A stretch of 64,000 bases of DNA from a virus (lineage: Duplodnaviria; Caudoviricetes). Below are positions 2,850 to 50,928 of this stretch, one piece after another; position 1 is the first letter of the stretch, and each line of letters begins with the position of its first letter. The position numbers and the translations under genes were made by a program. The notes under the pieces were generated by a model. That model was not told where the DNA came from, made no database searches, and saw only the letters and a list, made by a program, of their open reading frames with translations. Location of the stretch: positions 32,001-96,000 of the IMG/VR virus record IMGVR_UViG_3300018492_000150; one strand, given 5' to 3'.

Positions 2850-3032
2850 ATGCCTGATAAAAATATATACTGCGATATGGCTACATATATAGAAGAGGAG
2901 TATATTTGTTGGTACACGGGTCGTCCGTGTACCATCTCTCCTATTCCTAATAAGTATCTATGCCATACATATGACAGTAATGTACAGAAACATAATAAAC
3001 ACAGAGAGGAGAAAAACGTCAATGGAAAGTAA
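2850..3032 (+). CDS. small Cys-rich protein
   Basis: GGAGG SD before ATG 2850; 60 aa with four Cys; overlaps the start of RNAP beta-C. Confidence 0.65.
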   Translation: MPDKNIYCDMATYIEEEYICWYTGRPCTISPIPNKYLCHTYDSNVQKHNKHREEKNVNGK

Positions 3033-5235
3033 TTTCAGTCAAGACATTAAACAGAATGCGGAGAGATTAAACAGCAAAGAAGAAATTTTAGGAAAAGGGT
3101 TATGTCAACCGTTTGTCGACTGTAATTCTGGATCAAGAAAACTTATGTTTTCTATTCATATGGAACAATCATTACCTCTTGTTCATCCAGAAGTCCCATT
3201 TGTAATGACTGGTTATGAACAAGAATATGGAGATAGATCTTCATCTATTATTAAAGCTGATACTGATTATGAAGTTGTGGCAAAGGTATCTAAGTTTGCT
3301 GATGCTCCACAGCACCATTATTTCTTAATCTTAAGAAATATCCATAACAATAAACTCAATTTTATTGAGAGAAAAGAATATACTCATTCAACAGAGACGT
3401 ATGGATATGCTTATGACAATACCGTTCTTGATAATTTGGATATTTCGTACGAAGTTCCAAAAGATGAATTATTGAGAAAATCAACAGCATTTGACCAGAG
3501 TATGAATCCAATGGATAGTGTAAACTTACTTGGAACTTATGTGGCTACTGATGTAACTATGGAAGACAGTATCTGGTTATCAGAATCTGCAAGACAAAAG
3601 TTAACGTCAAGATTATATAAGAGAGTAACAGTAAATATCAATGATAATGATATCCTTCTTAATCTTATGGGAGATGATGATCATTATAAGAGTTTTCCTA
3701 TGATCGGTGAATCTATTAAAAATGGCATTTTATGTGCAGTAAGACGAGAGAAGATTGAAGATTCTTTATTCACTCAGTCAGTAAGTATGCTTCAGAATAT
3801 TCTTATGTCTGATGATAAATACACTCCAGGTGAAAATGGAATAGTTATTGATATGGATATTCATTGTAATAATCCTGAGATTTTAAAAGAGAAGTACTCT
3901 AATTCTCAGGTTCTATATTGTTATAATGACCATATTAGGTTTATAACTGAGTTTGTTAGCACTATTGACAGACTTAAGAAACAATATAATCTTATCGACA
4001 CTGATTTAGACTATCATTTAGGTAAGATGTATTACAACTTTAAAAGAGAATTGGATGGAGTTCAGTTTAGAAATCAGAAAGTCTATAGCGGTATTGTTAT
4101 CGACTTTATTGTAAAAGAATTGAATATTCCATCTACAGGAGATAAATTGGCAAATAGATATGGAGGAAAAGGTGTTATCGCTAAAGTACTTCCAGATGAT
4201 CAGATGCCAAGATTGACTCTTACAGATGAACCTATTGAGATCCTTATCAATAGTTCAACTTGTATTAACCGTGAGAATATTGGACAGTGGCATGAAATGT
4301 CACTCACTCATGTCGGTAAATGTATTACTGACTTAATTAAATTAGGATACTTTGATACAAATGAAGCGTTTCAGGAAATTATTAAATTCTTGGGATTCTG
4401 TGCACCTAAGGAAGCTCAAGATATGGTACAATATATCAATGCGTTATCTAGTGAAGAAAGAGATATTTTCTTACAGTCTATTGTAGATAGTGGAAATATT
4501 GTATTATCTATTCAACCTATGACAGAATCAATGAGTCTTGATATGCTTGCAGAGTTATACAAAGCATTTGATTATGTAACTCAGAGAAGAATAATGATGC
4601 CATTAGAATCATCTACTGGACAGATTAGATTTGTACCAGCAAGAAGACCTGGAGTTGTTGGTCATATTGCAATGTACAGATTACAGCAGTATGCTGAAGA
4701 GAAACATTCAGTTACTTCATTATCTTCTACTAACCTTAGAAATGAGAATAGTAGAAATAAAGCTAATAAGTATTATAAGTCTACACATCAAGCTACTCCT
4801 GTAAACTTTGGAGATATGGAATGTGGAGACCTTGGTCATATTGGATTTGAAAATGTAATCACAATGCTGATGATTCATTCAGTATCACCACATGCAAGAC
4901 GACTTGTAGAGAACATGTTTATTGATGATCCGTATTTGGTAGATATTAAACTTGATGAAAATTCAAGTAATCGTAGTGCAGAAATATTAAACACATATCT
5001 CAAGTCTATCGGGTATAAACTCGAGTTTGAAAAGGTTAGAAAGAAAACAACTAAACCGTTTACTAGAAAACCATTCACTATTACAAGAGATACAAGTATA
5101 AAACCATTTATACAAGTAGATAAACAGATTATCCAGAATATGGAAGATTATCTTAACTGGATGGCTGCTTGTGAGGCTGCTGCTAGAAAGAAACCTTTCA
5201 AGTATAGACCATTCACCTACAGAGATGATAAATAG
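3022..5235 (+). CDS. DNA-directed RNA polymerase beta subunit, C-terminal half (probably non-virion RNAP)
   Basis: PFVDCNSGSRKLMFS, MEDSIWLSE, GDKLANRYGGKGVI, INSSTCINRENIGQ and FGDME match beta conserved regions; start corrected to 3022 (GAGGAG SD); under an early-like promoter. Confidence 0.92.
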   Translation: MESNFSQDIKQNAERLNSKEEILGKGLCQPFVDCNSGSRKLMFSIHMEQSLPLVHPEVPFVMTGYEQEYGDRSSSIIKADTDYEVVAKVSKFADAPQHHYFLILRNIHNNKLNFIERKEYTHSTETYGYAYDNTVLDNLDISYEVPKDELLRKSTAFDQSMNPMDSVNLLGTYVATDVTMEDSIWLSESARQKLTSRLYKRVTVNINDNDILLNLMGDDDHYKSFPMIGESIKNGILCAVRREKIEDSLFTQSVSMLQNILMSDDKYTPGENGIVIDMDIHCNNPEILKEKYSNSQVLYCYNDHIRFITEFVSTIDRLKKQYNLIDTDLDYHLGKMYYNFKRELDGVQFRNQKVYSGIVIDFIVKELNIPSTGDKLANRYGGKGVIAKVLPDDQMPRLTLTDEPIEILINSSTCINRENIGQWHEMSLTHVGKCITDLIKLGYFDTNEAFQEIIKFLGFCAPKEAQDMVQYINALSSEERDIFLQSIVDSGNIVLSIQPMTESMSLDMLAELYKAFDYVTQRRIMMPLESSTGQIRFVPARRPGVVGHIAMYRLQQYAEEKHSVTSLSSTNLRNENSRNKANKYYKSTHQATPVNFGDMECGDLGHIGFENVITMLMIHSVSPHARRLVENMFIDDPYLVDIKLDENSSNRSAEILNTYLKSIGYKLEFEKVRKKTTKPFTRKPFTITRDTSIKPFIQVDKQIIQNMEDYLNWMAACEAAARKKPFKYRPFTYRDDK

Positions 5236-5246
5236 GAGGTAACGTT

Positions 5247-48683: not shown

Positions 48684-49259
48684 TTAATGCACTAGCTCTT
48701 CTATTTTTCTTATTTTTAACGTTCTCTCATCATCGTATTTACTGATAACAGACGAAGAATTATCAATCATTAATCCTGTTGAAGTAAAATGAAATTCCAT
48801 TCCTCCAATTATACAAGTACTGACATGGCTATTAATATTCCGCATATCTTGTATCTGGCCATTTCCGTAAAATATAACATGACCTTTATTATCTATAATT
48901 TTATATGTCACATAATCATTGATTTTTAAATCGATAGTAATATTAGCATTACTGTCATAATCAGATGTACGAAGAATATAATTTTTATCAATAGTATAAT
49001 GGTACTCTCCGGGCATTATACCAAACAGTGCAAGGAATTCATCTAAAATTACCCACTCCGATATTAGCATTAAATCTTCTCCCCTATGAGATATCATAAG
49101 TTCTAAAATATTGTTATCATTCAATAAAATCATTTCTAGTTTTATAGGGCCATGTTTTGTCTTATAATAAGTGCTTTCATTTAAAGTGATATTTTTTCTG
49201 AAGATAAGTTTCTTATAACTTACATTCACTGTTATTGTATCTATTACATTTAAAGTCAT
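48684..49259 (-). CDS. hypothetical protein
   Basis: 191-aa ORF with GAGG SD. Confidence 0.65.
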   Translation of the reverse strand: MTLNVIDTITVNVSYKKLIFRKNITLNESTYYKTKHGPIKLEMILLNDNNILELMISHRGEDLMLISEWVILDEFLALFGIMPGEYHYTIDKNYILRTSDYDSNANITIDLKINDYVTYKIIDNKGHVIFYGNGQIQDMRNINSHVSTCIIGGMEFHFTSTGLMIDNSSSVISKYDDERTLKIRKIEELVH

Positions 49260-49362
49260 ATATTTACATCCTCTCTTTCCTATATCTTATTATATAATAG
49301 TGTCAAGTTTTATAATTTCCAAAACATATAAGTAATTGATCAGAAAGAAGGTAAAACGTCAA

Positions 49363-50928
49363 ATGGAGAAAATAATTGTAAAGAACACATGTGTGCAGAT
49401 CAATGATTATAACTTCGGAGACAGCCCGAAGTTAGAACGTTTTTTTGCTATATATGAACCTGTAACTCATAGCTACAGATATACAGGAATATTTTATGAT
49501 AACGAAAAAAGAATACTATACATACCTAGAGGAGTAGATGTATGGTATGTAGAACAGCTGTTAGATTGCAATGCATATGTTATGAAAAATGCATATAATA
49601 AATACGATACTTATAATGATATAGGTGTAAAATATCTTCCTAGAGATGAAGATCAAAAACAAGCCTTGAGATTTATGGTAGGTAGCGGAGAATATTTAGA
49701 AACACAATCTAAATCGCAGCTATCTGTAAATCTTAATACAGGAAAAGGCAAGACATATGTATCTATCGGAACTATGTCGATATTAGGAATAAAGTCTATG
49801 ATTATAACTTATTCAAAATCAGTATTAGATCAATGGAGGCGATCTATCGTTCAGTATACTAATATTTCTGATAAAGAAATATTTAGTATAGATGGCTCTG
49901 GTTCAGTATTTAGATTGCTTACTAAATCTGATGAAGAGATAAAAAATATAAAAGTATTTCTTGTTACCCATGGAACTTTAAAGAGTTATGGAGATTCTTA
50001 TGGATGGGATAAAGTAACAGAGTTATTTGAATATATCAGAGTAGGGTTAAAGTTCTATGATGAAGCCCATACTAACTTTGATAATATGTGCATGATAGAC
50101 TTCTATACTAATGTATACAAGACTTATTATCTCACTGCTACACCAGCAAGATCAAATGAAGACGAGAATAGGATATATCAAACAGCATTTAAAAATATAC
50201 TCGCAATCGATTTATTCCATGAAGATACAGACCCTCATACTCATTATATCGCTATGAGATATAATAGTAGACCTGAGCCACAAACTATATCATTCTGTAA
50301 GAATAAATATGGTTTAGACAGAAACAAATATACAAATTACATTGTCACGAATGATAATTTTAAGATGATGTGCTGCGTAGTACTAGATTTTATATTTAAA
50401 AAGGTTATAAAGTCATCACAGGATAAAATACTTATCTACATTGGTACAAATCAAGCAATTCAAGAAGTATATCAATGGATCTTAGAAAAATTCCCATTTT
50501 TATATGGAAATATCGGTATATTTACATCTATAGTTTCAGATGAAGACAAAGCATATTCATTAACAAGACAAGTTATACTTACCACTACAAAATCAGCAGG
50601 AGCTGCTATAGATATTAAAGGATTGAAATGTACTTTGGTATTAGCAGAACCATTTAAATCTGAAGTATTAGCAAGACAGACTTTGGGTAGAACTAGAGCT
50701 AACGATACTTATTACATCGAGGTGGTTGATAAAGGATTTAAATACTGCAATAAGTATTTCTTGGATAAAAGAAAAATATTCAATATCTATGCTTTAGATT
50801 GCAAGTTGGTAGACATATCAGACCAAGAGTTAAATGATATGTATAACAATAATGTAATGGTTAGACAGATGATCAAACCATTTACAATCAAAAAAGAAAG
50901 GATTCGACCTTTTACTTTTGAACATTAG
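49363..50928 (+). CDS. superfamily 2 DNA helicase (UvsW-like)
   Basis: PRDEDQ (Q motif), LNTGKGKT, YDEAH, LTATP, AIDIKGL, QTLGRTR. Confidence 0.9.
   Translation: MEKIIVKNTCVQINDYNFGDSPKLERFFAIYEPVTHSYRYTGIFYDNEKRILYIPRGVDVWYVEQLLDCNAYVMKNAYNKYDTYNDIGVKYLPRDEDQKQALRFMVGSGEYLETQSKSQLSVNLNTGKGKTYVSIGTMSILGIKSMIITYSKSVLDQWRRSIVQYTNISDKEIFSIDGSGSVFRLLTKSDEEIKNIKVFLVTHGTLKSYGDSYGWDKVTELFEYIRVGLKFYDEAHTNFDNMCMIDFYTNVYKTYYLTATPARSNEDENRIYQTAFKNILAIDLFHEDTDPHTHYIAMRYNSRPEPQTISFCKNKYGLDRNKYTNYIVTNDNFKMMCCVVLDFIFKKVIKSSQDKILIYIGTNQAIQEVYQWILEKFPFLYGNIGIFTSIVSDEDKAYSLTRQVILTTTKSAGAAIDIKGLKCTLVLAEPFKSEVLARQTLGRTRANDTYYIEVVDKGFKYCNKYFLDKRKIFNIYALDCKLVDISDQELNDMYNNNVMVRQMIKPFTIKKERIRPFTFEH

Follow-up and report, generated by a model that had tools for sequence, protein, structure and literature searches.

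Why should proteins as unlike as RNA polymerase (RNAP) subunits, a DNA ligase, helicases and a homing endonuclease all carry the same short peptide, lysine or arginine followed by proline and phenylalanine ([K/R]PF), in a single phage? The question is raised by a stretch of 64,000 nucleotides (the window), bases 32001-96000 of the 113,639-bp viral record IMGVR_UViG_3300018492_000150 (G000), in which a sequence-only reading had described [K/R]PF as a multivalent short linear motif targeting transcription, replication and repair proteins to one hub, possibly the import machinery of a phage nucleus. By comparison with related genomes we propose, at a probability of roughly 75%, that [K/R]PF is a lineage-private docking tag that co-evolves with, and would be read by, one phage-encoded reader.

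The record is 46% complete as judged by CheckV and represents about half of an AR9-like jumbo phage genome of ~250 kb, so that any claim of absence from the genome needs complete relatives. The nearest cultured relatives are the AR9/PBS1-type jumbo phages, with protein identities of only 27-32%, and near-identical DNA is present in bovine and canine gut metagenomes (about ten studies) as well as in metatranscriptomes. IMG/VR contains 43 related contigs, the complete ones being 213-264 kb long, and eight related genomes (G001-G005, taken in full, and G006, G007, and G010) were used as comparators; proteins of G001 are 65-78% identical to those of G000. The gene order around RNAP beta-C (UvsX, the counterpart of the AR9 non-virion RNAP beta-C g089, NAD-dependent ligase, and beta-N) is the same as in AR9, and the tagged polymerase is thus the homologue of the AR9 non-virion RNAP.

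Counts were made on a greedy set of open reading frames (ORFs) from the whole record, comprising 114 proteins and 34,129 residues. [KR]PF occurs 30 times, against 5.9 +/- 2.4 expected from 2000 within-protein shuffles, none of which reached 30, and the extended form [IVMT][KR]PF[TIV] occurs 19 times against 0.29 expected; RPF, PFT and KPF rank with the most strongly over-represented tripeptides. The enrichment anticipated from the window is therefore real, all of the matches listed there were found where they had been placed, and the count of 22 was reproduced, 21 being in the gene set and one in ORF 13604-13966. The consensus is a hydrophobic residue, K/R, P, F, and T/V/I, often followed by arginine or a further hydrophobic residue. 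The codons beneath it are mixed (AAA/AGA/AAG/CGT/CGA; CCT/CCA/CCG; TTT/TTC), showing that selection acts on the peptide and not on a DNA word. In a comparison of the tails with those of G001, 56 of 57 core positions of the motif are unchanged (98%), as against 88 of 249 positions in the flanking tail (35%; Fisher p = 1.5e-20).

The tagged proteins, identified through Pfam and PHROG searches, are four subunits of the non-virion RNAP, PolB-N and probably PolB-C, a DnaB-like and a superfamily 2 (SF2) helicase, the NAD-dependent ligase, an AT-hook protein, and several small Zn-ribbon proteins (Table 1). In the relatives the tag is also found on a PD-(D/E)XK exonuclease and on an SbcD-like nuclease with phosphoesterase motifs, the genes for which lie outside this fragment. 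The tag is missing from the virion RNAP set and from the proteins of the virion, among them capsid and sheath.

Table 1. Coordinates of tag sites and of candidate tag readers (window positions unless a genome or contig is named).
Feature	Gene	Position	Strand	Remarks
Five tags, C-terminal tail	Non-virion RNAP beta-C, ORF 2971-5235	5050-5064, 5065-5079, 5098-5112, 5188-5202, 5203-5217	+	
Two tags, N-terminal extension before adenylation domain	NAD-dependent DNA ligase, ORF 5606-8041	5957-5971, 6065-6079	+	
Degenerate tag (V for K/R) near C-end	RNAP beta-N, ORF 9490-11226	11155-11169	+	
Tag, C-end	100-aa Cys-rich (Zn-ribbon-like) protein, ORF 11229-11531	11505-11519	+	
Near-tag (K-P-I), N-end	96-aa Zn-ribbon protein, ORF 11844-12134	11871-11885	+	
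Tag near N-end	120-aa Zn-ribbon protein, ORF 13604-13966	13682-13696	+	ORF overlaps 12946-13695
Tag, N-end	AT-hook protein, ORF 16978-17985	17956-17970	-	Covaries in G001, G002, G003, G005, G007
Three tags, C-terminal tail	PolB-N, ORF 18100-20061	19909-19923, 19954-19968, 19990-20004	+	
Tag, C-terminal tail	RNAP beta'-C, ORF 41164-43347	41203-41217	-	Covaries in every tagged lineage
Tag, N-end	HNH/NUMOD4 homing endonuclease, ORF 44698-45513	44728-44742	+	Pfam NUMOD4 and HNH
Probable tag, edge of variable insertion after motif C (residue 260)	PolB-C, ORF 45760-47421	46534-46548	+	
Two tags, C-terminal tail	SF2 (ResIII) helicase, ORF 49336-50928	50872-50886, 50902-50916	+	Covary in all tagged lineages
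Degenerate tag (R-P-I), N-end	Conserved 246-aa protein, ORF 51504-52244	51504-51518	+	
Candidate reader	202-aa protein of no known family, behind PolB-N	20429-21037	+	
Candidate reader	286-aa low-complexity Zn protein, outside the window	G000 (L115) 5970-6830		Directly upstream of topoisomerase II genes
Candidate reader	341-aa protein of no known family	L062:9013-10038 (G001)		Region missing from this half genome

The sites lie outside the catalytic cores, as had been supposed, and in extensions beyond the reach of AR9 homology, which in beta-C stops at about residue 688 and in PolB-N is gone by about residue 600; no comparable motif was found in the AR9 tails examined. The ligase domains recognized by Pfam begin only at residue 229. 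In an AlphaFold2 model of the helicase, the one client that was folded, the core has a predicted local distance difference test (pLDDT) score of ~80, and residues 512-530, which include both tags, score 31-37 and have no secondary structure. Lying outside folded domains, with its core under purifying selection, and gained on unrelated proteins, [K/R]PF has the features of a short linear motif. Terminal and exposed positions would equally suit a cleavage site or a degron that times removal of the tails or of whole proteins. Such a role is very improbable, as AR9-type phages depend on their non-virion RNAP at a late stage, five sites within 60 residues and N-terminal sites immediately after the start methionine would be odd for cleavage, and the virion proteins, which are the usual protease substrates, lack the motif.

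The strongest evidence for a common role comes from orthologous proteins, which carry a different motif in each lineage at the same places, with copy number roughly kept. The local motif is [KR]PF in G000 and G001, [KRN]AF in G002, [KR]LFxKI in G003, xMCxIV in G004, K[IV]W in G005, FMxR in G007, and VIx[FWY] in G010. The SF2 helicase usually has two copies and beta-C three to five at aligned places; the PolB-N tails examined outside the group of G006, in which no tag was detected (see below), have two to four copies, and three in most lineages. Further covarying sites are present in the tail of the DnaB-like helicase and, outside the window, at the N-end of an RNAP subunit. The left end of the record truncates the DnaB-like helicase gene, of which the last 208 residues, tagged tail included, are present. 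Each lineage pattern is enriched only in its own genome. Concerted change on about a dozen orthologous proteins is what one shared reader would predict.

These data refute the view that the motif has no function and reflects composition, a DNA-level word or chance. Background of that kind accounts for no more than the ~6 matches expected, and the count exceeds the shuffles, the codons vary, core and flank differ in conservation, and the motif covaries across eight genomes.

The patterns other than [KR]PF were read off the tails beforehand, and we therefore used a blind de novo motif finder on the 40-residue termini of 12 orthologous clients, although this and the off-diagonal controls answer the objection only in part. 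In seven tagged genomes the finder returned motifs of 12.8-15.2 bits, against 9.9-10.9 bits for shuffles; in G006 it returned 10.89 bits against 10.81, from which we conclude that the G006 lineage is without a tag. Position weight matrices (PWMs) built from the sites of the blind finder give 12-26 matches per genome where about one is expected, and 75-96% of these are within 70 residues of an end. In a three-protein tree rooted on AR9 the dialects of the form [KR]-x-F make up one well-supported clade, which fits gradual drift of the tag. At the deeper nodes, which place G006, support is only 26-40%, and loss of the tags cannot be told from their primitive absence.

Two further explanations bear on the dialects themselves. 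The tags might bind one another, in the manner of a beta-zipper or RHIM, so that clients co-cluster without a separate reader; several dialects do have alternating hydrophobics and are strand-like, and self-recognition also expects concerted change across clients. We regard this as very unlikely given that the motifs are just 5-7 residues long with charged flanks, that the version described here has a central proline, that single-copy clients could not form a network, and that the length or Q/N context of amyloid-like sequences is missing around the tags. Comparably small odds attach to docking on a host hub (the beta clamp, single-stranded DNA-binding protein (SSB), a chaperone or a protease adaptor), with dialects that track hosts. 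Phage and mobile-element proteins do borrow host clamp-binding motifs, but none of the seven dialects resembles QL[SD]LF or the SSB-tip consensus, host pockets are highly conserved and yet the motifs differ among phages of the same animal-gut habitats, and one lineage would have dropped the system altogether.

Covariation also settles the status of individual sites. Both ligase positions covary in G002, G004, and G005, and only the first does so in G003. Three near-matches pointed out in the sequence-only reading (in beta-N, in the Zn-ribbon gene given there as 11862, and at 51504) deserve their place, since orthologues have full local tags in the same regions: beta-N tails in G001-G004, G007, and G010, the N-end of the 96-aa Zn-ribbon protein in G001 and G003, and the N-end of the 246-aa protein in G002, G003, G004, and G010. 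No orthologue of the 100-aa Cys-rich protein was found among the relatives with which to follow covariation. At PolB-C the column of residue 260 does not itself covary. However, local tags are found in the insertion just upstream of it in five other lineages (G002, G004, G005, G010, and G007, the last with two copies), and this insertion is at its shortest in G006, which has no tag; we therefore regard residue 260, at the edge of the insertion, as a probable tag. The PolB-C gene itself is in two pieces, encoding 130 aa (44056-44448) and 553 aa (45760-47421), with the tagged HNH gene between them; in G002-G005 it is one fused gene of 699-726 aa, and the split is probably due to an intron or mobile insertion.

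In total about 21 of the matches in the record are tags and about eight are background, where ~6 are expected by chance, with the PolB-C site in neither group. Most of the proteins first listed as tagged stand, but RecA, 20429, 26390, and 48158 do not. The triplets at RecA residue 90, in 26390 and 48158, and at residue 370 of topoisomerase II (outside the window) are unchanged across lineages that use other tags, and are thus structural; the match in 20429, and those at G000 107497 and 112174 (both outside the window), are simply unconserved. SbcC and the virion proteins are without a tag, as originally noted. Within the late structural block (23459-40989; 17 proteins, 5557 aa) there is one match, again a triplet conserved in lineages with other tags.

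The same block contains a 1076-aa repetitive protein (28084-31314, minus strand), probably an internally repeated structural protein of fibre-like type, which explains why H-T-H (9 of 11 copies) and A-A-A are in excess among the tripeptides of the record. ORFs 36999-37772 and 38155-39627 (minus strand) match one protein of 714-784 aa in the relatives and are another interrupted late gene, which in G001 is in three pieces.

Mobile and accessory genes have acquired the tag as well. Two of the three HNH/NUMOD4 paralogues here score as tagged, the third having an unconserved match near its N-end. In G007 the local core motif is at the N-end of all four HNH proteins, two of which exceed the PWM threshold, and some 11 accessory proteins specific to G007 have the G007 tag at the start or end. 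Pfam was uninformative for ten lineage-specific tagged accessory proteins. It follows from the presence of the local tag on HNH and accessory proteins that it is portable and is picked up by newcomers that need phage DNA.

In the mechanism that we propose, the tag sits in disordered terminal extensions or loop insertions of proteins working on replicating phage DNA, and one phage-encoded reader would recognize it through a pocket that drifts together with the tag. The reader would concentrate its clients at phage DNA, with multiple copies per client providing avidity. We infer the existence of a single reader, its phage origin, and the outcome of recruitment or localisation. Two forms of such a mechanism, which differ in what the reader is, can be held up against the client list and the candidate genes.

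In the first, the reader would be a cryptic protein on DNA that resembles a sliding clamp or serves as a processivity factor, with the tags acting like PIP-box (PCNA-interacting peptide) or gp45-binding tails to couple polymerase, ligase, nucleases, helicases and late RNA polymerase. The clients resemble those of T4 gp45 and PCNA (a polymerase C-tail, ligase, nucleases, late transcription), and topoisomerase and RecA, which are untagged here, would also be atypical clamp clients. The leading candidate is the 202-aa protein, whose gene is universal and lies directly behind or overlaps PolB-N in 6 of 9 genomes, whereas in G000 and G001 it is at a greater distance downstream and in G010 it is elsewhere; the triple tag common on PolB-N tails would suit the same coupling. 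We consider this form possible but rather doubtful. Searches for the gp45 and PCNA clamps and for clamp-loader families (PF09116, PF00705, PF13177) gave nothing above cut-off in five complete genomes, the 202-aa family profile has no match in PDB or Pfam, none of its 114 homologues is named, and hhalign gives a probability of 0.3% against the gp45 profile. Its members, at 173-210 aa, are short for a two-domain clamp, and tagless G006 has one too. Motifs that bind clamps tend to be conserved over long distances, whereas these tags differ between relatives whose proteins share ~50% identity. Clamp clients do not usually bear five copies on a single subunit or include so many small accessory proteins, and no dialect fits the Qxx[ILM]xx[FY][FY], QL[SD]LF or LDFLF-type consensus.

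In the second form the tag would admit proteins to a replication-transcription compartment or condensate that holds the phage DNA, or keep them there, and a scaffold or gate protein would read it. The low-complexity Zn protein is the candidate for this role, and private dialects would exclude foreign proteins. All of the tagged proteins need phage DNA, the selfish HNH and lineage-specific accessory proteins included, and tag number grows with machine size: seven on RNAP beta-C, beta'-C and beta-N plus one on the RNAP subunit outside the window, three or four on the DNA polymerase, and two each on ligase and helicase. A gate distinguishing self from non-self also predicts rapid rewriting. The candidate has Y/G/Q/M/P/F-rich flanks, predicted to be disordered, around a conserved CxH...CxxC core, and is present clade-wide and absent from AR9 and phiKZ; tagless G006 keeps a divergent syntenic copy with the Zn ligands replaced. 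The AlphaFold2 model (mean pLDDT 42) is too weak for a fold search. This form, too, is held tentatively, at odds well short of even. The low-complexity protein persists in G006, and topoisomerase II, RecA, the Dda-like helicase and SbcC are untagged. No homologue of chimallin or PicA was detected: single-sequence phmmer searches of six proteomes (G000-G005) with phiKZ gp54 (chimallin) and gp69 (PicA/Imp1) gave best E values of 0.5 in each case, the chimallin search being of low sensitivity. AR9-like phages are described as lacking chimallin, and import into the chimallivirus nucleus reportedly does not use linear terminal signals (PMC13282480), so that an address of this type is without precedent.

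In its most developed version the tag would be a passport into, or for retention in, a DNA compartment or condensate not made of chimallin. Rewriting would constitute a self/non-self code that shuts out nucleases of the host as well as enzymes and homing endonucleases from co-infecting relatives, and resident selfish elements would have copied the password; this is conceivable, although we would bet against it. The HNH and accessory tags together with the fast rewriting lean towards access to DNA as the purpose of the tag, and a clamp-like reader is favoured by the range of clients and by the coupling of the 202-aa gene to the polymerase gene. As for the original proposal, the multivalent linear motif on transcription, replication and repair proteins is borne out, but its nucleus-import version is without direct support, and the chimallin, PicA/Imp1 and clamp searches that it called for yielded no recognizable homologue in the genomes searched.

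Other genes were considered as readers of the docking tag. The 341-aa protein is in all of the tagged genomes, and its G006 homologue lacks the central ~150 residues. RNase H (G001 151023-151838 and orthologues) is also in all of the tagged genomes and is the only universal gene undetected in G006; we rejected it since the protein consists of an RNase H1 domain and nothing further, and lacks the clamp module of chimallivirus Rhc. The window opens within a gene (window 3-554; G000 31340-32554) for a 404-aa tubulin/FtsZ-like protein with a GGTGSG-type signature, similar to PhuZ and TubZ. Its presence would suit a compartment, and most relatives have it, including tagless G006, but it was undetected in G005 and was rejected as reader for not being universal among tagged genomes. 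Profile searches of PDB sequences with four early proteins of no known family (A1-A4) gave nothing, and most early proteins have no Pfam match. ESM Atlas yielded nothing of use for window 8079-8753 or for the family of the 341-aa protein.

The wiring of replisomes through hubs and peptides is known, and in T4 and RB69 the clients of gp45 include the polymerase gp43, gp33 and gp55 for late transcription, and ligase. The gp45, PIP-box and beta-clamp tails are similar to the present system in placing a terminal peptide on polymerase, ligase, nucleases and transcription proteins, with one hub on DNA. They differ in that here there is no detectable clamp or loader, the sequences are unrelated, there are up to five tandem copies, RNAP core subunits are tagged, and the motif is rewritten in each lineage. 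The SSB C-terminal tip and the acidic tails of T7 gp2.5 and gp4 are also terminal peptides that organise a replisome, but those are acidic and on the hub, whereas the peptides here are basic-aromatic and on the clients. Encapsulin and microcompartment peptides and the T4 capsid targeting sequence are short, portable peptides at protein ends, which can be transferred to other cargo and which evolve together with a shell or scaffold. However, the clients here are non-virion enzymes, and with the virion RNAP and the structural proteins untagged, capsid loading is unlikely. The PEX5 WxxxF and nuclear localisation signal transport motifs are likewise multiple small aromatic motifs in disordered regions, and the genomes compared here encode a Y/G/F-rich low-complexity protein; the resemblance is an analogy alone, without homology or any sign of a phase or pore here. 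Nucleus import in chimalliviruses (PicA/Imp1 and Imp3-6) provides replication and transcription proteins and homing endonucleases with a selective route to sequestered phage DNA, in jumbo phages that likewise have two multisubunit RNAPs, but is reported to rely on surface patches (PMC13282480).

We found no published description of a [K/R]PF tag system in the literature, and no phage system in which one peptide is present on nearly the whole DNA-transaction machinery, multisubunit RNAP core subunits included, or in which such a peptide changes jointly on a dozen proteins in each lineage.

Several observations weigh against a tag read by one phage-encoded reader. No binding partner was found, and there is no clean presence/absence candidate, as nearly every universal gene has a homologue in tagless G006. 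Several proteins that act on the same DNA (topoisomerase II, UvsX/RecA, the Dda-like helicase, SbcC, and RNase H) are untagged; SbcC, and perhaps topoisomerase II, may ride on tagged partners, and this piggy-backing is an assumption. The reading of lineage patterns off the tails beforehand, described above, belongs here as well.

If the docking tag is what we propose, it provides a list, readable from sequence, of the proteins that each uncultured phage sends to its DNA, and a handle on how replication and transcription are organised in jumbo phages without chimallin. Should the reader be found, the lineages would also supply orthogonal peptide/reader pairs of natural origin, and the tag idea lends itself to tests that use peptides and heterologous expression and need no phage culture.

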